From the IMG/VR virus record IMGVR_UViG_3300046054_000005, positions 1-62,273 of that record: DNA of 62,273 nt; one strand, 5' to 3'. This document shows, in pieces, positions 19,082 through 62,273 of this stretch. Numbering within the stretch: position 1 is the first letter of the stretch; the number at the start of each line of letters is the position of its first letter. Below the pieces are notes generated by a model. It was not told the DNA's origin, made no database searches, and worked only from the letters and a program-made list of their open reading frames with translations. The stretch is from a virus. Both the position numbers and the translations under genes were made by a program.

Positions 19082-19127
19082 AGGGGTGTTTTGTCTACGG
19101 GGCTGGGAATCTCGTTAGGCGGGTTCT

Positions 19128-19460
19128 TTAGAAGTCGCGTCCCACCACGGTCTCGCGCGCCCGCCGCTTCTGTGCTCGCGTTGCGCCGGGGCCGGCCTGC
19201 TGACTGACCATCGAATCGATGGCGCGGTCGTTCTTGCACTGCGGGCAGTCGTCTTGGTAAGAGCGCTCATGCTTATCGCAGTATCCGGTTTCTTGGCGGC
19301 GCTGGAGTTCTTTGTGCGCCTGCTTCAAGAGCTGGCAGTTACGCTTGAGCATAAGGCTATCGTCGTCTCGCTTCCTCTCCAACTCTTCGACGCGCGCTTC
19401 AAGGCGCGTCACCCGCCTAAAAAGCTGGAGGAGCGTTATTTCTTTGAGGGCAGAGGTCAT
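19128..19460 (-). CDS. Hypothetical coiled-coil / Cys-pair protein.
   Basis: 110-aa ORF containing CDKH...CPQC. Confidence 0.5.
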   Translation of the reverse strand: MTSALKEITLLQLFRRVTRLEARVEELERKRDDDSLMLKRNCQLLKQAHKELQRRQETGYCDKHERSYQDDCPQCKNDRAIDSMVSQQAGPGATRAQKRRARETVVGRDF

Positions 19461-19502
19461 GGCAATTTGGGGGTTTGGGGGTGTGTTTGGTTTCGGCAGG
19501 TA

Positions 19503-19709
19503 CTACTGCGTTGCAGTGTCCAGAATATCGTGAGCGATGTGGGCGGGCAGGTAGCCGCTCAACGCGAGGCGCGCTTGCTCACGGGTGGTAAAGTCGGAAA
19601 ACCCAGTGAGCACGCCCAGCGACTCCAGAGCGTCCTCTTTGTCGCTCTGGCTAACGTGGGTAAGGTTGCGGATACCTTGTCGGACGGAGGTGACGTTGAC
19701 GTTTTTCAT
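19503..19709 (-). CDS. Hypothetical small protein.
   Basis: 68-aa ORF. Confidence 0.45.
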   Translation of the reverse strand: MKNVNVTSVRQGIRNLTHVSQSDKEDALESLGVLTGFSDFTTREQARLALSGYLPAHIAHDILDTATQ

Positions 19710-19743
19710 GGCAGGTAGTGTCTGGTGAGTGAGCGTGTTTGGT

Positions 19744-19805
19744 TACTGCGACTGCGCCCGCGCCGCGCAGTTTCGGCCCCAACCAAAGGGCCTCATCAGG
19801 CAGCA
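19744..19805 (-). ncRNA. Hammerhead ribozyme candidate, type I.
   Basis: Minus-strand RNA: UGCUGC CUGAUGA GGCCC-UUUGGUUG-GGGCC GAAA CUGCGC-GGCGCGG-GCGCAG UC^GCAGUA. The core UGA is the stop of ORF 19796..20050. Confidence 0.75.
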
Positions 19806-20050
19806 TATGCATATACTTTATCGTGGTCAAGGTCGCCCTCGTTAAGGAACGTCATGAAGACGACGTGCTCAACCGCTTCTTCCCTATTCTTGTAGTAGAA
19901 TACCTTACGCTTTCCATCGTGCCGCGTGAAGATCAGCTTGCCACAGTGCGACCAATAGTTGAAGTTGTCGCCATGAACGAGAACGCGGAAGTCGCCATTC
20001 TCGCAAGTCCGAACTGTGGCGTCGAAGATTTCGCGGGTGCAAGTGTCCAT
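19796..20050 (-). CDS. Hypothetical small protein.
   Basis: 84-aa ORF. Confidence 0.5.
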   Translation of the reverse strand: MDTCTREIFDATVRTCENGDFRVLVHGDNFNYWSHCGKLIFTRHDGKRKVFYYKNREEAVEHVVFMTFLNEGDLDHDKVYAYAA

Positions 20051-20174
20051 CGTATTGAGGGAGTGTGAGTGAGCGTGTTTGGCGCGTTGTGTTAGGGTAA
20101 AGGCACTAAAAGCACAGGGGTTTCTTGGGGAAAGCCATTTAATACACTCTTTACATTCTATTCAAGGCGGTGCT
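20051..20174 (-). promoter_or_regulatory. Conserved early promoter/leader module, copy 1.
   Basis: Minus-strand TTGAAT-15/17 nt-TATTAAAT, then the GGCTTTCCCCAAGAAACCCCTG and TTTACCCTAACACAAC blocks, then a CA-rich leader to the ATG. Homologous to five other copies. Confidence 0.6.
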
Positions 20175-20585
20175 TTACTTCGCCCAGAGGTCGAGACCCA
20201 GCCCGTGGCGCGCGCACGCCCGCCGGAACGCCTGCGCCTCGCTATTCGAGAACGGGTCTCCGAACCCGCTCCCGTCGAAGTCGGCTTCGCCCACGCCCTC
20301 GCGGGACACATCGTGATCGGCGCATCGCAGGACGACGCGCACTTTCGTACGCACTTTGCCGATGGCTTCGAAGGCTTCGCACTCGATTACGTAGAAGTCG
20401 AAGTGCCCGTTCGTGTAGAAGTCCAGCATTTTCTGGAGCGAGTACCAAGGCACGTAGTCAGCTTTGCGCCCGTTGCCAACCTTTTTCTGGTGAATCAGGC
20501 GGTCGGGGATCGGCTTCTGCAAGTCGGTGCGCACATCGGCATAGGGGCGCTGTCCCTTGCGGTCTTCATTTTGTTCGTCAGACAT
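20175..20585 (-). CDS. Rad52/Sak-like single-strand annealing protein.
   Basis: YVPWYSLQKML ... SNSEAQAFRRACARHGLGLDLW resembles the Rad52-family C-terminal A.K.A..DA.KRA...FG.G..LY motif. Confidence 0.55.
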   Translation of the reverse strand: MSDEQNEDRKGQRPYADVRTDLQKPIPDRLIHQKKVGNGRKADYVPWYSLQKMLDFYTNGHFDFYVIECEAFEAIGKVRTKVRVVLRCADHDVSREGVGEADFDGSGFGDPFSNSEAQAFRRACARHGLGLDLWAK

Positions 20586-20629
20586 GGGTTGTTAGCGCGT
20601 TTAGTGAAAGGCACGAAGAGTGGTTCTAC

Positions 20630-21016
20630 TCACATCTTGAATTCAATACGATGGAGGGCCTTTCGGCACATCCTGCGCACGGACTTTTCCACATCCCATT
20701 TGCCTACGTCGCGAGGACGCTCCGCCCCGGGAATGTAGTGGCGAACCGTGCCGCAGGACATAGCGAGGCGGACCGGGTCATCAAGGCCCATCTTGTGACC
20801 AAAGCAGGCTGCTGAACGGCCCGGCGTGGCGTAGCCGCTGACGGCAAACATCTCGTCGGGAACGGTCTCGTTGGTCACCTCGCCGTCGAACCGTACAGAC
20901 CCGTGGTCGCTGTACCTCTCCAGTTCTAATCGTGCTTTCCAATCGGTGCCTTCGCGCTCGCATTTGAGGCCGAGGGTCAGGTTGTGGTCTTTACCGGAGA
21001 CGTCGTCAAAGGTCAT
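20630..21016 (-). CDS. Hypothetical protein.
   Basis: 128-aa ORF. Confidence 0.45.
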   Translation of the reverse strand: MTFDDVSGKDHNLTLGLKCEREGTDWKARLELERYSDHGSVRFDGEVTNETVPDEMFAVSGYATPGRSAACFGHKMGLDDPVRLAMSCGTVRHYIPGAERPRDVGKWDVEKSVRRMCRKALHRIEFKM

Positions 21017-21306
21017 GATGAGGTGAGGGGGTGTGGTGCGTCGTTAGCTCGCGGGTCGTAGATGTCCGCCGGTTCGATCCTTTCGAGGCGGTACGTGTAG
21101 TCGCGGCGGTCGGGGTCGTAGCCGTTTTTGCGAAGAGCCATTTGGTACTCCTGTTCAGCGTAGAAGGCAAGTGTGCCCCTCCCGGCAAGCTCTTGCGCTT
21201 TGAATCGCACCTCCGCCTCGGTTTCCGCATTGATGTGGAATTCGGCCCAGAAGAAGGCATTAGCCATTCTGACGGTGTAGGTCGAGCGCGTGTTCATTTC
21301 ATTCAT
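21013..21306 (-). CDS. Hypothetical protein.
   Basis: 97-aa ORF with an ATGA overlap onto the next gene. Confidence 0.45.
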   Translation of the reverse strand: MNEMNTRSTYTVRMANAFFWAEFHINAETEAEVRFKAQELAGRGTLAFYAEQEYQMALRKNGYDPDRRDYTYRLERIEPADIYDPRANDAPHPLTSS

Positions 21307-21334
21307 AACCTGTGATCGAGAACGTCAATGCGGG

Positions 21335-21730
21335 CTACAAGGAAGCCGCCTCAAGCTCGCGGTTCAAATCTACGCAAGCTCGTTCGAGCGCATTTGTCGA
21401 GTACCCGCGACGGGGAGGGTGGCTGGGGATCCCAGCGATTTCTTCAAGGCGCTTTTCGGAGAGGTCGAGCCGGGGCGTAATGTCGCCCCGGCGCATCCAG
21501 ACCGCATTTCCCATGAGTATACGCGCAGCAAGCACCTGTGCGGAGAGGTCTTTCGCTTCGCGATAGTACATTTCCGGTCGGGGAATCCGAGTGCCGTTGC
21601 TCACCAGCCGCACCTCTTCGTACAGGTCCGAAAGGTAGGCCGTCCAGAACGAATCCAAGCGACCCGCGCGAGCACCAGCGCTCACCTTGCGAACCTTTTC
21701 AATTTTTGACGGCGGGATGAAAATACGCAT
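21335..21730 (-). CDS. Hypothetical protein.
   Basis: 131-aa ORF. Confidence 0.45.
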   Translation of the reverse strand: MRIFIPPSKIEKVRKVSAGARAGRLDSFWTAYLSDLYEEVRLVSNGTRIPRPEMYYREAKDLSAQVLAARILMGNAVWMRRGDITPRLDLSEKRLEEIAGIPSHPPRRGYSTNALERACVDLNRELEAASL

Positions 21731-21760
21731 AGCAGCACCGGAGATGAAGAACGGCTGGAA

Positions 21761-21808
21761 GGCCCCGGCAGCGGGATCGAACCGCTGCTTGCCCGTCCAG
21801 GCGGGGCG
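21761..21808 (-). other. tRNA-like minihelix (acceptor-like stem plus canonical T-arm) in an intergenic spacer.
   Basis: Minus-strand RNA GCCCCG-CCUGGACGGGCAAG-CAGCGG-UUCGAUC-CCGCUG-CGGGGC-C. There is no D arm or anticodon arm. Confidence 0.35.
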
Positions 21809-21814
21809 GTCTTT

Positions 21815-22129
21815 TCAGGCACGTTCGATGCGGTCGGCGAAGTGCTCGCGCGCCACGTCCACCTTGCCCTTCCGCTGGCACCAGTCGAAGGCGTCCGCTT
21901 CGGAGAGGGCATGGATGGCGGACCCCCAGCCGCGCATTCCGTCGGACGTAGTGGACCCGTAGTGCGTCTTCGCGTGACCCTCTCCGGCAAGGAACCAGCG
22001 CCCCTTTTCAGTGCGGTAGAGCGTCTCGCGATAGTAATCGAAGTCAGTGGTGCTACCACCGGTTGAGTAGCTGGCAATTTCTTCGGCGGTGGCGGTGTCG
22101 TAGAGTTTGCCGTCAATGAGGTCTTGCAT
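21815..22129 (-). CDS. Hypothetical protein.
   Basis: 104-aa ORF. Confidence 0.45.
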   Translation of the reverse strand: MQDLIDGKLYDTATAEEIASYSTGGSTTDFDYYRETLYRTEKGRWFLAGEGHAKTHYGSTTSDGMRGWGSAIHALSEADAFDWCQRKGKVDVAREHFADRIERA

Positions 22130-22161
22130 GGTACTGGTGTATTGGTGAGTGTGTGAGTGCG

Positions 22162-22248
22162 TCGGACAGAGCGTCCGGCGGGCTGTACCGCGACGCCCCC
22201 TTCACGGAGAGGGCGTTTCGGGTGCGGCCAACACCCTCATCAGGCAGC
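22162..22248 (-). ncRNA. Hammerhead ribozyme candidate, type I, followed by a 3' flanking hairpin.
   Basis: Minus-strand RNA: GCUGC CUGAUGA GGGUG-UUGGCCG-CACCC GAAA CGCCCUCU-CCGUGA-AGGGGGCG UC^GCGGU, then hairpin CGGAC-GCUCU-GUCCG. The core UGA is the stop of the 22240..22500 gene. Confidence 0.75.
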
Positions 22249-22500
22249 GAACCAATCGTCGAGTGCGGTAGTCATGTCTTTGTCGGTGGCAGGCAGGTAC
22301 ACTTCAAGCTCGCCATCTCGAAAGCGCTGGACGAGGAAAACCCGTGGCGTGCCCCCTTCGTCAATGCCGGAGACCATGTGAATGACGGGGTATCCGTCTT
22401 CCTCGGTGTCATACTCACCATTCCCGTACTCATGGGTGACGATCTTGTCGTTTTGACCGCTGCCGATATCGTATGTGAGGTGCTTTTGGGTCAAGGTCAT
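22240..22500 (-). CDS. Hypothetical small protein (86 aa, MTLTQKHL...).
   Basis: Internal ATG of track ORF 22240..22785. The longer version would overlap the upstream gene and the leader. Confidence 0.5.
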   Translation of the reverse strand: MTLTQKHLTYDIGSGQNDKIVTHEYGNGEYDTEEDGYPVIHMVSGIDEGGTPRVFLVQRFRDGELEVYLPATDKDMTTALDDWFAA

Positions 22501-22594
22501 AGTGTCGAGGGGGGGGGGCGGTGTGAGTGTGAGTGCAGACCCCACTGCGGGCGATGATCCCGCTGCGGCCTCACCGGGTGGGGCGCGTGAAAGA

Positions 22595-23155
22595 TCACAC
22601 GGCTTCGATAACCGCGCGGCGGCGTTCTTCCGGCAGGTCTGCGAGGCTGTCCGCCAGCGCCTGCTCCTGCGGCGTGAGGCCGCCCTCATCGTCCCGTTCG
22701 ATGATTTCCGTGTCCCACCCCATGACGCTTTCCTCCGCAAGCGTAACGGGCACGTCGCGGACTTCCAGCACGGCGTTCTTGGCATTCCATTCGGGGTACT
22801 TGCGCGAGCCGCCGCCTTTCAGGGTGCCTTCGATGAGGGCGACCCCTTCACCGAGGTCAGGCTTTTCATCGCGGGAGCGGAGGCGCAGGACAACCCGCCC
22901 GAACGCCGTCAGGTCCTCGCGGTCGCTGTCCTTGTCGGTCGTCATCCGCACGTCTACGGTCGCCACGTCACTGCCATCGGTGCCGTAGACCTCGAACAGC
23001 TTTTCCCGAACGCGCTCCTCGTCGCGGCAGTCGAACGCCCAGACCTCGCCGGTCCAGTTGCCGTTCAGGTTGCGTGCGAAGTTGACGAACTTCTCGTGGT
23101 AAGGCGAGTCAACGTTGATTTGGCCGTTGTCGGTGGTGATGCTTACGTTGCTCAT
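22595..23155 (-). CDS. Hypothetical protein.
   Basis: 186-aa ORF, first gene after promoter copy 2. Confidence 0.5.
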   Translation of the reverse strand: MSNVSITTDNGQINVDSPYHEKFVNFARNLNGNWTGEVWAFDCRDEERVREKLFEVYGTDGSDVATVDVRMTTDKDSDREDLTAFGRVVLRLRSRDEKPDLGEGVALIEGTLKGGGSRKYPEWNAKNAVLEVRDVPVTLAEESVMGWDTEIIERDDEGGLTPQEQALADSLADLPEERRRAVIEAV

Positions 23156-23286
23156 GGTAAAGAGTGGTGTGTTTTGGTGATGAGTGCGAGTGTGTTTTCC
23201 CTTCCCCCTTGTTGTGTTGGAATAAAAGCATTAAAGGGACAGGGGTTTCCTCGCAATACCCTTTTAATAAGCGCTTAACATTCTAA
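23156..23286 (-). promoter_or_regulatory. Conserved early promoter/leader module, copy 2.
   Basis: Minus-strand TTGATT ... TTATTAAAAGGG ... GAGGAAACCCCTG ... CA-rich leader. Aligns with the other copies. Confidence 0.6.
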
Positions 23287-25290
23287 TCAAGCGGGAAGCT
23301 GTTCCCCAAGCGCCGCCTCCACGACCCCGTCGTTGAGCTGGCGCCGGTACTTGCGCACCAGCTTGCGCGCGTAGTGGGCCTGCTTATCGGTGAGGCTCTC
23401 GTACCCGGCGAGCGAGTGACCGAATTCCGTATCCGCCTTGTTGAAGCCCATACCATCCAGCGAGCGCGCCCCATCGCAGTAAGCGGAGAGCGTCTTCACG
23501 CCTTTCAGGATAGCTTCTTTTTCCTCGTCGGTAGTCTCGGTGATCTCCTCGCGCGTCGAAGAGGCGACACTGTCGTTCAACTCTTCGTCCGCGCCGCTCG
23601 GCACGATATCGAGGTCCACCTCGTCGGCCTCATAGAAGCCGTCCTCGAAGTCTTCGTTCATGGCGGCGTCGATGTTTTTCTGCTTGCGCACGTTTTTCTG
23701 GGCAATGCGGGCTTCGAGGCTCTCGTTCACAACGAGGTACTGGACGTGCACCGTGTCGTCCTGTCCTATCCGGTGGCAACGGTCCTCGCACTGGCGGTTC
23801 ACAGAGGGCGTCCAGTCGATCTCCGCGAAGACGACGTGCGAGGCGGCGGTGAGCGTGATGCCCGTCCCAGCAGCGTGAATGCTCCCGATGAAGACGCGCG
23901 TATCGGGGTCCCCCTGAAAGCGGTCAACGACCTGCTGCCGCTCCTTCTGCGGCGTGTCGCCCGTGAGCGAGACGGCGCGCTCCCCGAATTCGTCCTGGAG
24001 CCGAGCGATCACGTCCTTGTGGTGGGCGAAGACGACGACCTTTTCTTCCGACTCGAGCACAGAGTTGACGTGCTGGATGACGTGCCCCGCCTTCTCAACG
24101 GCGATCTTTTTACGGATCTCCGCGATGCGCTCAAACGCCACCTTGCGGGCCTCTTTGAGCTTCTCGACGGCCTCGCGGTACGCCTCGTCGTCGTCGTTGA
24201 CTTCGGCGCGAGCCTTCCGGCGCTTGAGATCGGCGATGCGGTCCTCGTGCTCCTCGTATGCTTCGCGTTCTTCCTGAACGAGGCCGCCCATGCCGTTCTG
24301 CGCAAGCGGGATCACCTGCCGCATCTTATCCGGCAGGTCGGTGAGCACGTCCTCCTTCTGCCGCCGTACCATCACCGACGAGCGCAGCCGCTCCTGAAGC
24401 TCGCCCAGATTGGTCGCGCCGTCCATGTCCCAGCCCCAGCGCGTCTTCTTCGCGCCGCAGTACGTCTTGGCGTAGGACCAAAAGTCGAACTCGTCGGTGA
24501 GTTCGGAGACCTGCTGCCAGAGTTCGATGGGACGATTCTTGATCGGCGTCCCGGTCAGGAAGAGGCGGCGGTCGGCCTCGATCTCTTGGGCCGCCTGTGT
24601 GCGCTTCGCCTTCCGGTTCTTGATGAAGTGTGACTCGTCGAGGACGAGGAGTTCGGGACCGTGCTCGTTGATGATGGCGGGCACTTCATTACGGGTGGAC
24701 AGCAGCGCGTAGTTAACGATCTCGACGTCAGCGGTCATGGGTCCCTCATCGTAGACATTGACTTCCAAGTCGCCCGTAAGCCACGTCCGCGCCTCGCGCG
24801 CCCAATTCTGCTTCAACGAGGCGGGGCAGACAACCACGACCGTATCGAGACCCAATTTATTGACAGTGCCCAGCGCCTGAATCGTTTTACCCAGCCCCAT
24901 CTCGTCAGCGATCAGCACGCCGTCCTCGCCGCTTTCGTACTTCTCGACCGCATACTGGATGCCGGCACGCTGGAAGTCGTAGTATTCGAGGTCGTCGGGG
25001 GCGGGCACCTCGTAGTCGCTATTTTCGGCCCGCGAGAGGTCCTGAAAGTGCGCGGCCTCTTCGAGCTGCTCTTCGAACTCGGCCCGCAGCCAGTCGAGGT
25101 TTTCCGCCCCGATTTCGTCGAGCATATCGACAATCTCCGGTCGGTAATCGACCGTCCAGTGATCTCCGGTCCAGCTTCGGTGCGTTTCTTCCCACGGCAG
25201 AGACTTGATAGCGTCCTTATCCTCGTAGTCGGAGTCAAGGATGACTTTAAGGCCGTATTGGGTCTCGGTGATGCGCTTGGCAGTAATCAT
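23287..25290 (-). CDS. SNF2-family (SF2) helicase / ATP-dependent translocase.
   Basis: Motifs DEMGLGKT, LVLDESHFIKN, LTGTPIKN and the helicase-C block GTGITLTAASHVVFAE..W.P....Q..DR.HRIGQ. Confidence 0.85.
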   Translation of the reverse strand: MITAKRITETQYGLKVILDSDYEDKDAIKSLPWEETHRSWTGDHWTVDYRPEIVDMLDEIGAENLDWLRAEFEEQLEEAAHFQDLSRAENSDYEVPAPDDLEYYDFQRAGIQYAVEKYESGEDGVLIADEMGLGKTIQALGTVNKLGLDTVVVVCPASLKQNWAREARTWLTGDLEVNVYDEGPMTADVEIVNYALLSTRNEVPAIINEHGPELLVLDESHFIKNRKAKRTQAAQEIEADRRLFLTGTPIKNRPIELWQQVSELTDEFDFWSYAKTYCGAKKTRWGWDMDGATNLGELQERLRSSVMVRRQKEDVLTDLPDKMRQVIPLAQNGMGGLVQEEREAYEEHEDRIADLKRRKARAEVNDDDEAYREAVEKLKEARKVAFERIAEIRKKIAVEKAGHVIQHVNSVLESEEKVVVFAHHKDVIARLQDEFGERAVSLTGDTPQKERQQVVDRFQGDPDTRVFIGSIHAAGTGITLTAASHVVFAEIDWTPSVNRQCEDRCHRIGQDDTVHVQYLVVNESLEARIAQKNVRKQKNIDAAMNEDFEDGFYEADEVDLDIVPSGADEELNDSVASSTREEITETTDEEKEAILKGVKTLSAYCDGARSLDGMGFNKADTEFGHSLAGYESLTDKQAHYARKLVRKYRRQLNDGVVEAALGEQLPA

Positions 25291-25420
25291 GGCGTGTGTG
25301 GTGTGTTTGGTGATGAGTGCGAGTGTATTTCCCCCTCGTTGTGTTAGGGTAAATACACCTAAGGCACATGGGTTTCCTTGAAAAAGCCCTTTAATATTTT
25401 CTTTACAACCTATTCAAGCC
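25291..25420 (-). promoter_or_regulatory. Conserved early promoter/leader module, copy 3.
   Basis: Minus-strand TTGAAT-AGGTTGTAAAGAAAATATTAAAGGGC ... GGAAACCC ... TTTACCCTAACACAAC ... CACCAAACACACC-ATG. Confidence 0.6.
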
Positions 25421-25435
25421 GGGACCCCGTATTTT

Positions 25436-25459
25436 TGAACGGTTATTCAGAACCGTTCA
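25436..25459. promoter_or_regulatory. Perfect palindrome TGAACGGTT-N6-AACCGTTCA (operator or hairpin) between the HTH gene stop and promoter copy 3.
   Basis: 9-bp arms read directly from the sequence. No U-tract follows on either strand. Confidence 0.4.
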
Positions 25460-25465
25460 CATGGA

Positions 25466-25885
25466 TCAGTTACGACGGCGGGCGAGGGCGAGCGCAGCGT
25501 CTGCTACGTCACGGGGGTTTTCCATAACGTGACGGTGTAGCAGCCGGAGCGAAATAGCATACTTAGCGCTCACCTCGGCACTCCCCGATTCGTATTGAGT
25601 GACGCGGTTGCTACTATAACTAAGGGCAGGCGCGAACTCCGTCTGCCGTATGATTTCGCCGTGCCCGTGACGATCTGCCATGACCTCGTAATACTCTTTT
25701 TCGGTCATAGTCTCCGCCACAGCGTCGTTCATTTCCTGCCGGATTCGAGACACGTCTTCATCATCCATCGGAGAGGTATCCACAACTCCGTCGAACACAC
25801 TCTCTTCGATTTGTGGTTTGCTTCTGGAGATAGCCATTTCGGGGGGCGATTCGTTTTTTGGAAAAGGGGTAGCAGTAAATGGCAT
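25466..25885 (-). CDS. HTH (XRE-like) transcriptional regulator candidate.
   Basis: The C-terminal half LSYSSNRVTQYESGSAEVSAKYAISL is HTH_3-like. The gene is divergent from the replication operon. An alternative start exists at 25837. Confidence 0.45.
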   Translation of the reverse strand: MPFTATPFPKNESPPEMAISRSKPQIEESVFDGVVDTSPMDDEDVSRIRQEMNDAVAETMTEKEYYEVMADRHGHGEIIRQTEFAPALSYSSNRVTQYESGSAEVSAKYAISLRLLHRHVMENPRDVADAALALARRRN

Positions 25886-27284: not shown

Positions 27285-27699
27285 CTCGCTCCGCAACATC
27301 CTCGGGGACGACCTCGATTGGGCGAAGCAAGAGAACCTGCTGGGTGAACACCTCGACGCCGTGCAGGGCGTTGCTGAACATTTTGGGTTGGACCTCGAAC
27401 CGGAGCGCGTCAAGACGCTCGTTCGGGGCCTCTCCCTGCACAAACTCACGAAGCGCCAGACCGTGAACGCAGTGCGCCTCCTGCTGCATGACACCGATTT
27501 CAAAGAGGGCCTGCGATATGGGGCGACCTTGCAGGCGCTTGACTTCGTGATCGTATTGCCGGAGGACGGAGCCTACTACACCGAACGACAGGTGGACCGC
27601 TTCGACCGCCTGACGGACTACGAGAAAAGCGTAGACTTTCACAAGGTCGGAGGCCCCGGCGAGAGAGACTGGATCTTCGATGCACCAAACACACCATGA
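27214..27699 (+). CDS. Hypothetical protein (helicase-loader position).
   Basis: 161-aa ORF with a single ATG, overlapping the initiator gene by 71 nt. Its ATGA overlaps the DnaB start. Confidence 0.4.
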   Translation: MSNSPKQRDENAISQKLARTSGSNSLRNILGDDLDWAKQENLLGEHLDAVQGVAEHFGLDLEPERVKTLVRGLSLHKLTKRQTVNAVRLLLHDTDFKEGLRYGATLQALDFVIVLPEDGAYYTERQVDRFDRLTDYEKSVDFHKVGGPGERDWIFDAPNTP

Positions 27700-33785: not shown

Positions 33786-34076
33786 ATGACAATGAACTAC
33801 GAGAACCTACCCGGCCCGGTCGATCCAATCTGGGCGGGTGACTGCACTCGTCGAGTGGTGCCCTACCTTCCTCCTCGCGCAGAGGTATTGGCGGTGAAGC
33901 AGAAGGGGCCAAGCACGGCAGTGTACATCAACTGCACTCCGGCTCTTGGCGAAGGCGCAACTCGACGTCTCGCCAGTGCCCTCCAGCACGATCCGGCGTT
34001 TAAAGAGCTATTCCACTTCACGCAGGGTCGCGAGATGGCCGTATATTTTACCACACCCAGCGGGGTGAAGCTCTGA
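33786..34076 (+). CDS. Hypothetical protein.
   Basis: 96-aa ORF. Its last 17 nt overlap the tRNA-like gene. Confidence 0.45.
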   Translation: MTMNYENLPGPVDPIWAGDCTRRVVPYLPPRAEVLAVKQKGPSTAVYINCTPALGEGATRRLASALQHDPAFKELFHFTQGREMAVYFTTPSGVKL

Positions 34077-34134
34077 TGGTACGAGCGCTGGCCTTCCAAG
34101 CCAGAGGTTGCAGGTTCGACTCCTGCCCCCCGCT
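34060..34134 (+). tRNA. tRNA-Gly(UCC)-like gene with an irregular acceptor/D junction.
   Basis: Manual cloverleaf. D stem gctc/gagc with GG in the loop. Anticodon stem ctggc/gccag with loop cTTCCaa. Variable loop aggtt. T arm gcagg-ttcgact-cctgc. The acceptor has 6 GC pairs plus one extra or mismatched nucleotide. No CCA is encoded. Confidence 0.5.
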
Positions 34135-34146
34135 CCCCATAAAACC

Positions 34147-40028: not shown

Positions 40029-40058
40029 AACAGGGGGGGTGTAGTGTGTTTGGCGGTT

Positions 40059-40122
40059 GCCGTGACCGGAGGGGAGTGCCCCCCCCGGTTTCGCCTCGTT
40101 CCCGCGAGGCTCGTCAGGCGGC
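40059..40122 (-). ncRNA. Hammerhead ribozyme candidate, type I (A.C mismatch at the first stem I pair).
   Basis: Minus-strand RNA: GCCGC CUGACGA GCCUCG-CGGGAA-CGAGGC GAAA CCGGGGGGG-GCACU-CCCCUCCGG UC^ACGGC. The core UGA is the stop of ORF 40114..40500. Confidence 0.6.
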
Positions 40123-40500
40123 TTTCGCGCGGAGCTTCACGAAGTCACTGGTGTCGTAGCTTCCGAACGACGAGCCGTAGGGGTACTTGTCGTACGCCTT
40201 GCAGGCGCGGCGCTGCGCGTGCCACTTAGCAACGGCGAACGACTCGCGCTTCTTGCCCGCGTAGCGGATGGCCTTTTCGCCCTTGCCGCCGGCCATCGTC
40301 ATGCCCTTTTCGGGGCTGACGGGCTTGTGTCCACGGCTCTGCACGCGATTGTCAGCGTGGTTCACGAAGTAGACGTACGAGGCGCCATTGTCGAGTTTGC
40401 GGGCGCACACGTCTACGTGACGGCTGATCGGGAAGGCGAAGAAGTCTTCCTCGTCAGTGATGCGCTCTTCGTTGAGAAGGTGAAGTCGAGTGTAGACCAT
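40114..40500 (-). CDS. Hypothetical protein.
   Basis: 128-aa ORF. Confidence 0.5.
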   Translation of the reverse strand: MVYTRLHLLNEERITDEEDFFAFPISRHVDVCARKLDNGASYVYFVNHADNRVQSRGHKPVSPEKGMTMAGGKGEKAIRYAGKKRESFAVAKWHAQRRACKAYDKYPYGSSFGSYDTSDFVKLRAKAA

Positions 40501-40526
40501 TGGACTGGTGTGTGTTCGTTGAAAAT

Positions 40527-40599
40527 GGTAGCGAGGTGCTACCGCGACCGGGGGAGTGTCCCCCGGTTTCGCCGCGCTTTCAGCGGCTCATCAGGCGGC
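40527..40599 (-). ncRNA. Hammerhead ribozyme candidate, type I, with a conserved 3' flanking hairpin.
   Basis: Minus-strand RNA: GCCGC CUGAUGA GCCGC-UGAAAGC-GCGGC GAAA CCGGGGG-ACACU-CCCCCGG UC^GCGGU, then GGUAGC-ACCUC-GCUACC. It starts directly after the TAA stop of ORF 40600..40818. Confidence 0.75.
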
Positions 40600-40818
40600 T
40601 TACGAACGGCGCTCAAGCTCCTTGCGGCAGGCTTCCGACTTGTCCCAGAAGTGGCGAGCCCATTCCATCTTTCCTTCTTTGATGTGATCGTTGTCGGTCT
40701 CGTTGGCCTCAAGGATAAGGTCTTGAGCCTTATCGCCAAATTCGTCGTGACGGCGACGAAGTTCATTGTCGGAGAGTTCGCGAAGTTCGGCTTCGGAAAG
40801 CTTGCGGACGTTGTCCAT
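40600..40818 (-). CDS. Hypothetical small protein.
   Basis: 72-aa ORF. Confidence 0.5.
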   Translation of the reverse strand: MDNVRKLSEAELRELSDNELRRRHDEFGDKAQDLILEANETDNDHIKEGKMEWARHFWDKSEACRKELERRS

Positions 40819-40945
40819 TGGACTAGAGTGTGTTTGGTGTGAGAGTGTGTTTTCCCTTCCCCCTTGTTGGGGTAGGGTAAAGCCCTTAAAAGCGCAGGGG
40901 TTTCCCTCGAAAAGCCTTTTAATGCTTTCTTTACAATCTATTCAA
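40819..40945 (-). promoter_or_regulatory. Conserved early promoter/leader module, copy 4.
   Basis: Minus-strand TTGAAT-AGATTGTAAAGAAAGCATTAAAAGGC ... AGGGAAACCCCTG ... TTTACCCTACCCCAAC ... CACCAAACACAC. Confidence 0.6.
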
Positions 40946-41261
40946 GCGCGGATCCCTTTTCTTCGGGGGCTACCTCGGGGATCAAGACACGGACTGCTTT
41001 TTCAGCGACGGGGCGGAGGTCTTCGTAGCCGTCAGGACAAGATTGCTTCATGCCTTCGGAGCCGTTCAGGTAAAGCACCTGGCGCACGGAGTCGAAGATG
41101 CCGTCGCGCGTCGGAGGGGGCCTGTCTACCAGCGGGTCTTCCTCACACCATACAAGGACGCAGGCGAAGCAATGCACGAGCCGTTTGTAGGTCAGGTCGT
41201 GCGAGACAGTTGTGCGCAGGTAGGGTGTTCCGTCGGGGTGGTAGCGGAGCTTGCGGGGCAT
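40938..41261 (-). CDS. Hypothetical protein.
   Basis: Start taken at MPRKLRYH inside track ORF 40938..41441. Confidence 0.4.
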   Translation of the reverse strand: MPRKLRYHPDGTPYLRTTVSHDLTYKRLVHCFACVLVWCEEDPLVDRPPPTRDGIFDSVRQVLYLNGSEGMKQSCPDGYEDLRPVAEKAVRVLIPEVAPEEKGSALE

Positions 41262-47413: not shown

Positions 47414-47439
47414 GGTAGTGTGGTGTGTTTGGTGAAAAT

Positions 47440-47509
47440 GGTAGCGAGGCGCTACCGCGACGCGCACCCACCTGCGCGTTTCGCCTCTCGCGGAGGCTCA
47501 TCAGGCGGC
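47440..47509 (-). ncRNA. Hammerhead ribozyme candidate, type I, with a conserved 3' flanking hairpin.
   Basis: Minus-strand RNA: GCCGC CUGAUGA GCCUC-CGCGA-GAGGC GAAA CGCGC-AGGUGGGU-GCGCG UC^GCGGU, then GGUAGC-GCCUC-GCUACC. The core UGA is the stop of the 47501..47980 gene. Confidence 0.75.
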
Positions 47510-47980
47510 TTCGAGCGATACATCGCTCGGCTTGTGGGGTCCCCATTCGCCTACCTTGATAGAGAGCGCCTTTTCCACGCGCTCCTCGTCGAGGTCGAGT
47601 TCGTTGGCGATCCTGCGGACAGTAGCAGCGAGGTCCTTGATGGCCGTCCGGCGACCTTCCTCCACGTCTTCCTCCATGCCTTTGGGCGCTTCGGCGGGCG
47701 CTCCCCGCAGCGCGGCGACCATTTCGCGGCGGTAAAGGCTGGCGGCGTGCTCGGCCAGTTCGATGAGGTCGTCCCGGCTGGACACGTCCACGTCGTCAGC
47801 GGCGTTGATAACACTCTGCATCGAGCGGTTGCGCTGCGACTCGCGGACGGCGGCAGCACTTTGCTGACGGAGAGCGTCAATGACGTGGAAGTCATTGAGC
47901 TTGTCCTGGAGCGCCTCCTTCTTATTGGTACGGAAGGTGAGGTAATAGTCGATGGTAGAGTTGATGGCTTGAGTGTCCAT
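47501..47980 (-). CDS. Hypothetical protein.
   Basis: Start taken at MDTQAINST inside track ORF 47501..48079. Confidence 0.5.
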   Translation of the reverse strand: MDTQAINSTIDYYLTFRTNKKEALQDKLNDFHVIDALRQQSAAAVRESQRNRSMQSVINAADDVDVSSRDDLIELAEHAASLYRREMVAALRGAPAEAPKGMEEDVEEGRRTAIKDLAATVRRIANELDLDEERVEKALSIKVGEWGPHKPSDVSLEAA

Positions 47981-48115
47981 TGTAGGAAAGGGTGTGAGTG
48001 TGTTAGTGAGAGTGCGAGGGGCGGTTCCCCTTTGTTGTGTTAGGGTAAAGGCATTATGACAGAAGGGGTTTCCCTGCAAAAGCCTTTTAATACACTCTTT
48101 ACATTCTATTCAAGT
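47981..48115 (-). promoter_or_regulatory. Conserved early promoter/leader module, copy 5.
   Basis: Minus-strand TTGAAT (48113-48108), 17 nt, TTAAAA (48090-48085), then GGCTTTTGCAGGGAAACCCC and TTTACCCTAACACAAC. Confidence 0.6.
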
Positions 48116-48231: not shown

Positions 48232-49848
48232 ATGCTCCGCCCGGCCAATTCCAGCGCCAACGATTTCACGTCGCTGATTGCCCCGCACGAGGACTGGGGC
48301 GAGAACCGTCTCTTCGTCAAGGGCGACCACTGGCAGGACGGTGACGGGTGGCCCGGTACTTTTCCTGCTGAAGAGAAGCAGGGTAAGGACTACATGGAGG
48401 CTAAGAAGCGGATCAAGTCGTCTTTTATCAGCCAGAACGCCGTCAAGGAGGTTGTGCGTCGCCACATGAGCGGCGTCATCGGCAGGGAACCGTCGTGGGA
48501 ACTCGTCCCGATGGGCCGCGACGAGGCAGAGGAGGGCGTGGCCGACCGCGCGCATCGCCTGTTGCGCGACTGGCTACGGCGACGCGATGGGTTGAACGCG
48601 CTCCAAAAAGCGACCGAGCGAGCGCTGTGGGGAGAGGATGGCCCGCTGCGGCTCTTTGTACCACAGGGCAGGTTGCAAGGCAACGAGGAACTTAGCGTCC
48701 CGGCGAACTTGGGGGTGGAGGATGCGATGGACCTGCTTTTCGTCGAGTCGGTCCCCGCCAACCGATGCACCGTCCACACGATTCGCTCGCACATGAAGCC
48801 GGTCGGCATTTACCGAAGTGTGGACGACGACGCAGAGAGTGCTGTCGAGGTGAGCTACCTCGACGACGAGAACCGCACCGTCCTTCGCTTGCTGGAAGAG
48901 GGCGGCGACGAGATGACGGTCGCACCTATTAACATGGGCGGCTACCTGACGCACCATAACCTCTCGCTCGAACCGATCATCACGCCGCAGGTGCGTCAGC
49001 AGCAGCGCTTCCTAAACAAGAGCCATACGATGAAGAATGTGAACCTCGATTGGTCCGGCTTCTTGGAGCGCATATACTTGAACGCGCAGGAACCGGGGCA
49101 CTACGAGGACGACGAGGGCAACATCTACGGCGAGGGCGGGCCGGGGCGTCACTGGGTCAACGAGGGGCACGACGTCGGCCACGGGACCGTCCAGCACCTG
49201 GCAGGCGTGGTAACACAAGATCGCGACGGCGGTGAGACAGTCGCGCGCCCAGAGGTCGTCTTTCGCCACCCAGAGCCGACCGACCTGTTCGACCAAGCCA
49301 TTCAGGGGGCCTACACGACGATCCTCAAGGAGTGCGGGCAGGTACACGCTGCGCAGGGGTGGAGCGCCGATGCAAGCGGCGAGGCCATCCGCCAGCACAT
49401 GGCCGACTACATCGTGATGCTATACCTGTCGCGCCCCGCCGTAGAGCGAGCGGCAGAGTGGATGATGTACGGTGTGCTGCGCCTCGCCAGCGCGTTGGCG
49501 GGAGAGGCGGGCAAGTACGACGGGTATCGCCTTTCCGTAGAGGCTCGCCTGAATCCCGGCCCGGTACCCGCCCAAGAGATTGAGGCCATCGTGTCGTTGG
49601 TGAAGAACAAGCTGATGAGCCACCCGACAGGCATGGAGCGGGCAGGCATCGAGGATGCGGATGCAGAGATGGATCGTTTGCGCGCGGATCTTTACTCGCA
49701 ACTGGACGTGGACGTGCAACGCAGCGAACTGGCGGGCAACTTCTCGCAGGCCGGAATGCCGCTCGTCAATGCTCTGAAGGCCGCCGGGTTCGACGACAAC
49801 CGAGCCGAAGAACTGGCGAGTTTCTCAACGAACCCGCCCGAACCATGA
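48232..49848 (+). CDS. Portal protein.
   Basis: 538-aa ORF, the first large + strand gene after terminase, followed by a MuF-like gene. Confidence 0.65.
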   Translation: MLRPANSSANDFTSLIAPHEDWGENRLFVKGDHWQDGDGWPGTFPAEEKQGKDYMEAKKRIKSSFISQNAVKEVVRRHMSGVIGREPSWELVPMGRDEAEEGVADRAHRLLRDWLRRRDGLNALQKATERALWGEDGPLRLFVPQGRLQGNEELSVPANLGVEDAMDLLFVESVPANRCTVHTIRSHMKPVGIYRSVDDDAESAVEVSYLDDENRTVLRLLEEGGDEMTVAPINMGGYLTHHNLSLEPIITPQVRQQQRFLNKSHTMKNVNLDWSGFLERIYLNAQEPGHYEDDEGNIYGEGGPGRHWVNEGHDVGHGTVQHLAGVVTQDRDGGETVARPEVVFRHPEPTDLFDQAIQGAYTTILKECGQVHAAQGWSADASGEAIRQHMADYIVMLYLSRPAVERAAEWMMYGVLRLASALAGEAGKYDGYRLSVEARLNPGPVPAQEIEAIVSLVKNKLMSHPTGMERAGIEDADAEMDRLRADLYSQLDVDVQRSELAGNFSQAGMPLVNALKAAGFDDNRAEELASFSTNPPEP

Positions 49849-61683: not shown

Positions 61684-62273
61684 ATGCCGCTTCTCGACGC
61701 GACATTGACAATTGCAGACGGTGACGGGGGAACCTATGTCTATAACAACGCGAAGTTTGCCAAAAGCCAGCTGGAAAGCAGGGTTCAACTCACCAACGAC
61801 GGGCGAATCGAAAAAGACGGTTTCACGGTTGATCTCCGAAGCGCTTCGTTTATGGGGGCGACTTCACCGATTACTATCGACGGCGGGTGGTTTGGCAATC
61901 CGTTTCAGCCGCGTGCCACCGTCGAGTTGGGCGGCGAGACCGTGTTCGAGGGGCGCATCTCGAAAGCAGATGTAGCCAGTGACCCCGAAGATGCAGAGCA
62001 AGCGCGCGAGTGGACCGTCACGGTGCAAGGTTTTGCCTTTGCCGATGTGCTCGACGAGCTTTCGACAACCAGTGTTTTTGATGACGAGATTTTAGATTCC
62101 TTCGATTCTTATAAAGAGTTTCCCACGCGCTGGACCGACGAAGAAGGAACGAGGCAGGGGCCACAAGACCTACGCTGGTACGATATTGTTGAACTCTGGC
62201 GAACGGCAGTCGAGGCTATCGGCCCGTTCGTCTTTGAGACAACGATTGACCTCTTTCCGCTCGAAGTCGATTA
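61684..62273 (+). CDS. N-terminal part of the tail protein that continues at position 1 (see feature 1..1286).
   Basis: ATG at 61684. The frame is open to the window end and is absent from the track because no stop lies inside the window. Confidence 0.6.
   Translation, partial: MPLLDATLTIADGDGGTYVYNNAKFAKSQLESRVQLTNDGRIEKDGFTVDLRSASFMGATSPITIDGGWFGNPFQPRATVELGGETVFEGRISKADVASDPEDAEQAREWTVTVQGFAFADVLDELSTTSVFDDEILDSFDSYKEFPTRWTDEEGTRQGPQDLRWYDIVELWRTAVEAIGPFVFETTIDLFPLEVD
62225..62273. repeat. End overlap, copy 2.
   Basis: Identical to bases 1-49. Confidence 0.95.

Follow-up and report, generated by a model that had tools for sequence, protein, structure and literature searches.

The question raised by this locus is whether a short G+C-rich element lying between two small ORFs of a viral genome, at 19744-19805 on the minus strand, encodes a self-cleaving hammerhead ribozyme, and what its cleavage would do to the transcript that carries it. 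The whole stretch of DNA analysed, hereafter the window, is 62,273 nucleotides long. Its bases 1-49 are identical to bases 62225-62273, and this 49-bp terminal direct repeat implies a complete circular (or terminally redundant) genome of about 62.2 kb; the window encodes a large terminase subunit, a major head protein, a DnaB-like helicase, a SNF2-type helicase and other phage proteins, so that the genome, of about 62.2 kb, is assigned to a tailed phage. The element, here called copy E, fills the gap between an ORF of 84 aa and one of 68 aa, and it is composed of the following parts.

19744-19805, minus strand: hammerhead copy E, whole element, type I (open at stem I), identified from its sequence, its MFE fold and its match to the covariance model R2 described below.
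19800-19805, minus strand: 5' strand of stem I, UGCUGC, in which the 84-aa ORF has its final two codons, GCU GCC (Ala-Ala).
19793-19799, minus strand: core positions C3 to A9, CUGAUGA, whose UGA at 19798-19796 is the stop of ORF 19796-20050.
19775-19792, minus strand: stem II hairpin, with strands GGCCC (19792-19788) and GGGCC (19779-19775) and loop UUUGGUUG (19787-19780), closed by the pair G10.1-C11.1 and supported by sequence, fold and covariation.
19771-19774, minus strand: core positions G12, A13, A14 and A15.1 (GAAA), read from the sequence.
19752-19770, minus strand: stem III hairpin, with strands CUGCGC (19770-19765) and GCGCAG (19757-19752) and loop GGCGCGG (19764-19758), supported by sequence, fold and covariation.
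19750-19751, minus strand: U16.1 (U 19751) and C17 (C 19750), with the predicted scissile bond at 19750/19749, from the sequence and standard numbering.
19744-19749, minus strand: 3' strand of stem I, GCAGUA, with which the predicted downstream product begins (5'-OH).

Both ends of the element lie in stem I and loops cap stems II and III, which gives a three-helix junction. The core has the consensus base at every position (C3 U4 G5 A6 U7 G8 A9, G12 A13 A14 and A15.1-U16.1), with a C as H17, and a second in-frame UGA follows the first, as a tandem UGA-UGA; the stems also have their closing pairs, G19792-C19775 (10.1-11.1) and C19770-G19752 (15.2-16.2). In hammerhead numbering the scissile bond directly follows position 17; because C17 is 19750, the cut is placed between 19750 and 19749, in agreement with the cleavage site predicted by the initial annotation. 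The minus-strand RNA given there was recovered base for base when 19400-20150 was read again on the minus strand, and its other statements on the element held as well: the reading of the ORF confirmed the core UGA at 19798-19796 as the stop of the 84-aa ORF 19796-20050, and stem I does have 6 bp, one of them a G.U pair. The hammerhead three-way junction is also the MFE fold of 19725-19815 on the minus strand; the tail is unpaired in this fold, consistent with the earlier remark that copy E has no extra 3' hairpin. The folding energy of this G+C-rich segment is ordinary when compared with shuffled sequences (z = -0.34). All the sequence-level features that define a type I hammerhead are present in copy E, and this reading is supported.

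Regarding the frequency of such motifs, a loose pattern of the form CTGATGA...GAAA...TC had 10 matches in the window (shuffles: 1.0 on average, at most 9), while a strict descriptor that included the core, the three stems, the GAAA and the UH had 4 matches, as opposed to 0 in each of 200 dinucleotide-preserving shuffles. Rfam 15 reported no hammerhead family at its gathering score in the window, and RF00163 had no match in the Rfam searches of the window. For copy E, the best sub-threshold matches were with RAGATH-1-hammerhead (RF03152; 16.7 bits, cut-off 56.3), covering model positions 22-77 and leaving positions 1-21 without alignment, and with Hammerhead_3 (RF00008; 16.5 bits, cut-off 48.5); the sole hammerhead entry in a whole-window scan by E-value was a 25-bit Hammerhead_3 match at another copy. 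The failure of copy E to attain an Rfam gathering score reflects the make-up of the Rfam models and no feature missing from the element.

Because Rfam gave no match at a gathering score, dedicated covariance models were built from other viral contigs. Type I hammerheads were collected from IMG/VR with a DNA pattern, which yielded at least 118 contigs (loci L001-L118); the pattern was anchored on GCCTGATGAG, and the set is therefore biased. The models were derived from N-padded alignments based on the descriptor, plain MAFFT having misplaced the GAAA; R1 included the copies of the window, whereas R2 excluded them and was built only on 55 hammerheads of other viral contigs. At 19744-19805 on the minus strand, R2 gave a full-length match (model positions 1-81) of 48.2 bits, with an E-value of about 3e-12. 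On the window, R2 found exactly six copies, all on the minus strand, and the next-best match, at background level, had 12 bits. The five sisters of copy E, none of which has an Rfam gathering score, are listed here.

22186-22249, minus strand: sister hammerhead in the same operon, upstream of copy E; R2 43.6 bits; its core UGA is the stop of ORF 22240-22497.
18554-18608, minus strand: sister hammerhead in the same operon, downstream of copy E; R2 34.1 bits; its core UGA is the stop of ORF 18599-19081.
40058-40123, minus strand: sister hammerhead with a CUGACGA core and a C.A mismatch at pair 1.1/2.1; R2 36.7 bits; its core UGA is the stop of ORF 40114-40500.
40540-40600, minus strand: sister hammerhead with a 3' hairpin, GGUAGC-N5-GCUACC, overlapping the 3' strand of stem I; R2 48.2 bits.
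47453-47510, minus strand: sister hammerhead with the same 3' hairpin, GGUAGC-N5-GCUACC; R2 49.1 bits.

The copy at 18608 has a CUGAAGA core and an extra U ahead of stem II, and for this reason its activity is less certain. Two further occurrences of the core motif were considered and rejected: the seventh CTGATGAG on the minus strand, at 17250, lacks the GAAA and the stems, and CTGATGAG at 49612 lies inside an ORF of the plus strand.

The six paralogous copies of this one genome, fitted to the model, were used as the alignment for covariation. Over the 13 modelled pairs, 97.4% of the cells are paired, and both sides have changed in 7 of the 13; the covariation score was reached by none of 500 shuffles, and controls in which the partner strand was slid pair at 25-57%. 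Stems II and III covary freely over the six copies, while stem I is nearly constant, with GC[CU]GC on one strand and GC[GA]GU on the other.

As for the hairpins GGUAGC-N5-GCUACC, they occur at 40526-40543 and 47439-47456 (minus strand), directly after the cut sites of the copies at 40600 and 47510, and their GGU is shared with the 3' strand of stem I. As an alternative fold, each could draw the 3' product away from the ribozyme once the RNA is cut, or could compete with stem I while it is still uncut. The two copies also have in common CAUUUUCA, located after the 3' hairpin, which in the copy at 40600 is complementary to loop II (UGAAAG).

Copy E has a further element that is absent from the initial annotation, namely a predicted 7-bp pseudoknot between loop II and the 3' tail.

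19738-19744, minus strand: pseudoknot partner AACCAAA, which pairs with UUUGGUU of loop II (19787-19781) through seven Watson-Crick pairs.

The final base of stem I is also the first of the partner, which overlaps the leader motif ACCAAACAC. The probability of seven contiguous Watson-Crick pairs with a random 12-mer of the window is about 2.5e-4. Among the matches listed, 18% of 99 distinct phage hammerheads have a loop II/tail helix of 5 bp or more, versus 7.4% with permuted tails, and 0 of 200 tail permutations reached the 18%; in 15 of the 18 the partner begins 0-2 nt beyond stem I, its sequence varies between hammerheads, and an architecture like that of copy E is found in 13 other phage hammerheads (again, among the matches listed). 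The predicted pseudoknot is probably the tertiary contact that would make copy E fast. Two points on folding accompany it. In a context of 241 nt, the nested MFE fold picks the pseudoknot helix and gives up stems I and II, so misfolding of copy E is possible. The computed energies are about -6.5 kcal/mol for stem I and about -6.4 kcal/mol for the pseudoknot, together about 13 bp of product binding, which could keep both products associated after cleavage.

Regarding known systems, the closest likeness is with the clustered type I, II and III hammerheads of phages and prophages described by Perreault et al. 2011 (PMC3088659): these share the canonical core and the use of pseudoknots instead of loop-loop contacts, and they too occur as several copies that flank single genes or short blocks of unknown function within one transcript. 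That work described and tested pseudoknots replacing loop-loop contacts in all three hammerhead types; it found that clustered prophage hammerheads cleave in vitro, one cluster also in vivo in E. coli, and it proposed as their role the processing of long phage transcripts into gene-length mRNAs (PMC3088659). Copy E does not differ in kind from these ribozymes, and it belongs to the clustered phage/prophage hammerhead class known since 2011. Three traits were not found in that paper (PMC3088659): the core UGA as a stop in five of six copies, the leaders of 35-62 nt, and a pseudoknot partner that overlaps a leader motif. The use of the core UGA as a stop together with the regular leader adds modestly to what is known of the class rather than of copy E itself.

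Two other families are related in part. With the RAGATH-1, or pseudoknot, hammerhead (RF03152; PDB 8YDC, Zhan et al. 2024, PMC11300833), copy E shares the core, the type I connectivity and the presence of a pseudoknot; however, in RAGATH-1 a pseudoknot takes the place of helix II, its partner being the loop of helix IV, an extra hairpin on the 5' side (PMC11300833), whereas copy E has a regular stem II hairpin of 5-6 bp and no 5' hairpin, and pairs its loop II with the 3' tail to form the pseudoknot. The same topology and core are also found in the type I hammerheads of the extended form (RF00163), from Schistosoma and newt satellites, in which loop II contacts an internal loop of stem I and which occur within tandem satellite or retroelement repeats (PMC11300833); copy E differs from these by its uninterrupted stem I, its pseudoknot and its context between cistrons of an mRNA.

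The setting of copy E is that of its sisters. The six hammerheads are found in the two leftward blocks, composed mostly of small genes for which PHROGs, Pfam and the protein database gave no match, and R2 detected no hammerhead in the rightward blocks, which hold packaging, head and other replication genes. The operon of copy E is arranged, in this order, as a promoter-like repeat, the 84-aa ORF, copy E, ORFs of 68, 110 and 160 aa, and the hammerhead at 18608; it ends with a DUF932-like gene of 401 aa and a terminator-like hairpin. The immediate neighbours of copy E are as follows.

20086-20166, minus strand: promoter-like repeated intergenic element, 5' of the 84-aa ORF, one of five copies, found by self-BLAST and alignment.
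19796-20050, minus strand: upstream ORF of 84 aa, with the C-terminus ...YAYAA and gene-like codon-position G+C.
19503-19709, minus strand: downstream ORF of 68 aa, with an unstructured C/A-rich leader before its ATG, which stands 40 nt from the cut.

The last distance, from 19749 to the ATG at 19709, is the one given in the initial annotation, and the leader of the 3' product is nearly free of structure (-2.2 kcal/mol over 61 nt). The element at 20086-20166 is a putative promoter and the likely start of the copy E transcript. Regarding the genes, a search of 5.8 billion proteins gave no homologue of the 84-aa ORF; it was called as a gene on a Logan contig that is 100% identical and is the only other contig carrying it; the small ORFs flanking copy E have nothing in PHROGs or Pfam. 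No orthologous locus of copy E was present in the collections searched (viral contigs, proteins, Logan), a query of viral contigs for loci related to the DUF932-like 401-aa protein returned none, and no hammerhead was found at eight loci with four DUF932-like homologues of 37-46% identity. BLAST of 17500-25000 against GenBank phages gave short marginal matches only, with Salisaeta, Ralstonia and Microcystis phages.

From the motif, its covariation, the complementarity of loop II and the gene layout, all of which are observed, we infer transcription of copy E, its cleavage in vivo and the consequences downstream. Copy E is very probably a genuine type I hammerhead of an early or middle leftward operon of a tailed phage, by which a polycistronic transcript would cleave itself. 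The operon would be transcribed, probably from the promoter-like repeat 20166-20086, and the nascent RNA would fold stems I, II and III around the conserved core, with the 7-bp pseudoknot, formed by loop II and the seven nucleotides that begin at the last base of stem I, holding stems I and II parallel. The 2'-OH of C17 (19750) would then attack the neighbouring phosphate and produce the cut between 19750 and 19749. The upstream piece would contain the whole 84-aa ORF with its stop, the core UGA, and would end in the compact ribozyme with a 2',3'-cyclic phosphate; since a type I ribozyme is cut at its 3' edge, the upstream mRNA would keep its stop and gain a structured 3' end. The downstream piece would start with a 5'-OH and a 40-nt unstructured C/A-rich leader, followed by the 68-aa ORF. 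Between them, copy E and its sisters at 22249 and 18608 would cut the polycistronic transcript into gene-sized or block-sized mRNAs, and the stability and translation of the pieces would no longer be linked.

A protein-dependent intercistronic processing of phage transcripts occurs at the RNase III sites between the early genes of T7. Copy E is like these sites in being a structured intercistronic element at which a polycistronic phage RNA would be cut so that the upstream piece retains a 3' hairpin; it is unlike them in that catalysis is predicted to reside in the RNA itself, with a 5'-OH and a 2',3'-cyclic phosphate as ends instead of a 5'-phosphate and a 3'-OH. In Bacillus subtilis, the 5'-OH product of glmS ribozyme cleavage is degraded by RNase J1. 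Whether the stability of either piece of the copy E transcript goes up or down depends on the RNases of the host.

The most regular trait of the six copies is their relation to the flanking ORFs, and the alternative that survives best builds on it. All six are intercistronic, and the distance from the cut to the next ATG is 45, 45, 35, 62, 40 and 61 nt (range 35-62). In five of the six the core UGA is the stop of the upstream ORF, and in the remaining one a TAA occurs two codons earlier, in the same frame as the core UGA; that all six copies lie in the UGA frame has a chance of (1/3)^6, about 0.0014. The only tRNA of the phage is a tRNA-Gly with anticodon UCC, at 34059-34137 on the plus strand; it is no suppressor, hence the UGAs of the hammerhead cores are read as stops.

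The same relation is visible in other viral contigs, to different degrees according to how it is measured. Among the matches listed, 47 of 109 hammerheads (43%) have the core UGA as the end of the upstream ORF, a figure that uses a looser definition of the hammerhead than the set of 81 below, while in non-hammerhead CTGANGA decoys an ORF ends at the UGA in 60 of 318 (19%; odds ratio 3.3, p = 1.4e-6). In the set of 81 distinct hammerheads, where the longest upstream ORF of 50 codons or more was considered, the core UGA is its end in 35, and in 24 more it ends within the 12 nt before the core UGA. By codon-position G+C, a measure independent of ORF length, the upstream gene is in the UGA frame in 41 of 77 (p = 4e-4). 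A crude frame test on open frames of at least 50 codons gave a modest excess, 54 versus 38 and 37 of 126 (all among the matches listed). On the other side of the cut, the next ATG-initiated ORF starts at a median of 32.5 nt, and at 20-59 nt in 68 of 86 cases, among the matches listed. These figures on stop codons and leaders need an unbiased confirmation because the set is biased by its anchor pattern. Copy E therefore follows a common plan, in which an ORF ends in or at the ribozyme, and the ribozyme is followed by a short leader and the next ORF. The core UGA as a systematic upstream stop, combined with a regular short leader, was not found in the literature searched, including PMC3088659, and the phrase 'stop codon' does not occur in Perreault et al. 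2011 (PMC3088659).

With this plan, copy E might be coupled to translation: cleavage would report the translation of the 84-aa ORF, or the terminating ribosome would act as the helicase that releases the 3' product. Stem I being made of the last two codons and the UGA being the stop, a ribosome that finishes the 84-aa ORF must melt stem I and cover the core. The five core stops and the in-frame TAA of the sixth copy, the shared UGA frame, the excess over decoys and the G+C phase among the other hammerheads listed, and the product binding of about 13 bp by stem I and pseudoknot all speak for such a coupling. However, genome compaction explains the overlap equally well, the core offering a free tandem stop, and 57% of the other hammerheads (among the matches listed) do not use their core UGA in this way; no paper on the coupling was found in the literature searched, an absence that carries no weight. 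On balance, translation coupling is considered unlikely, albeit attractive. A stricter form of the idea, slightly less likely still, is that hammerhead and upstream ORF would constitute one integrated unit, in which the passage of the ribosome excludes folding, and cleavage or release of the 3' product is gated by translation; if true, phage hammerheads would be regulatory and not merely constitutive.

Four of the six ORFs located upstream of the hammerheads end in Ala-Ala, as YAYAA, DWFAA, RAKAA and SLEAA (19796-20050, 22240-22497, 40114-40500 and 47501-~48000, minus strand), because stem I reads GCN GCC before the UGA. A resemblance of these endings to the end of the ssrA degradation tag is speculation.

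That copy E is an inactive or decaying relic, preserved now only as a stable intercistronic hairpin, for example as a barrier to 3' exonucleases, appears improbable. Two of its sisters do have defects (the extra U at 18608 and the C.A mismatch 1.1/2.1 at 40123), and inactive hammerhead-like RNAs were listed by Perreault et al. (PMC3088659), but copy E itself has the consensus core at every position, its stems are kept by compensatory changes, and its 7-bp predicted pseudoknot is of the kind that enhances activity.

Quite improbable is also a role in excision and ligation, by which two successive hammerheads would free a fragment to be circularised or spliced, through the reverse reaction or an RtcB-type ligase. 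The idea was raised by Perreault et al. (PMC3088659), and it would fit a stem I that is near-identical in six copies while stems II and III vary; because of this near-identity, the 5' end left by the copy at 22249 (GCGGUA) can pair with UGCUGC of copy E. Yet the 3' strand of copy E, GCAGU, pairs poorly with the 5' strand of the next copy, UCCGC, the conservation of stem I fits a coding constraint (Ala-Ala-stop) as well, and Perreault et al. (PMC3088659) sought circular or spliced products and found none.

Finally, a chance motif, an intrinsic terminator or a promoter, with G+C-rich hairpins that merely resemble a ribozyme, has a negligible probability: the folding z-score is indeed unremarkable, and one sigma-70-like match (TTGACC-17 nt-TATGCT, 19830-19802, minus strand) overlaps the 5' strand of stem I, but the absence of the strict descriptor from all 200 shuffles, the E-value of R2 and the covariation among the six copies contradict chance, no U-run follows stem II or III and no terminator is called at 19744-19805, and the sigma-70-like match, the only one in the region 17000-25600, is probably fortuitous since shuffles have more (1.9). 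A transcript starting at this match, 19802-19830, would be devoid of stem I.

Copy E as a genuine hammerhead that cuts a polycistronic transcript is thus the reading retained. The function of the hammerheads encoded in bacterial and phage genomes is open according to a review (PMC6765202). Copy E itself is nothing unusual, being a well-formed member of a family on record since 2011; the value of the phage lies in being a compact test case, with six copies in two operons, all intercistronic and none detected by Rfam at gathering scores, and phage type I hammerheads are under-called by standard annotation. The layout (stop in the core, ribozyme, leader, ATG) holds statistically in more than 100 other viral contigs, and its regularity makes both 'mRNA punctuation' and 'translation-coupled cleavage' directly testable hypotheses.

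Some additional observations concern the surroundings of the hammerheads. The five copies of the repeat element, at 20086-20166, 23164-23295, 25298-25428, 40828-40956 and 47992-48114 on the minus strand, have 80-130 bp and 75-84% identity, with the conserved core CTTGAATAGAATGTAAAGAG..TATTAAAAGGCTTTT..GGAAACCCCTG..TTTACCCTAACACAAC; they probably are early promoters or operators of the phage, because each is found just 5' of a leftward gene. For three of the five elements, the first ORF behind is followed by a hammerhead; a duplicated cassette of promoter, small ORF and hammerhead was considered but rejected, the small ORFs having no mutual similarity. At the other end of the copy E operon, the intergenic region 17129-17292 (minus strand), after the DUF932-like gene, has complementary G-rich and C-rich runs and the lone CTGATGAG at 17250; the terminator-like hairpin, CCCGGCA-N12-UGCCGGG with a U-run, is located at about 17165-17200 (minus strand) and is followed by a transposase-like ORF, 16202-17128, matching phrog_4285.

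The leader motif ACCAAACAC has 8 exact copies in the window, and 21 matches with at most one mismatch as opposed to 9.7 expected; sites are found, for example, at 19735-19743, 18510-18518, 19483-19491, 25303-25311, 40830-40838 and 47425-47433 on the minus strand and at 27684-27692 on the plus strand. Most matches lie within about 35 nt 5' of start codons, in G-poor, C/A-rich leaders, and the motif may be a translation-initiation signal of a host that does not use Shine-Dalgarno sequences. As for other viruses, arrays of hammerheads between genes are common in viral contigs: among the matches listed, L084 (minus strand) has 11 in about 7.7 kb, L034 has six, and L010, L048, L108 and L109 have five each.
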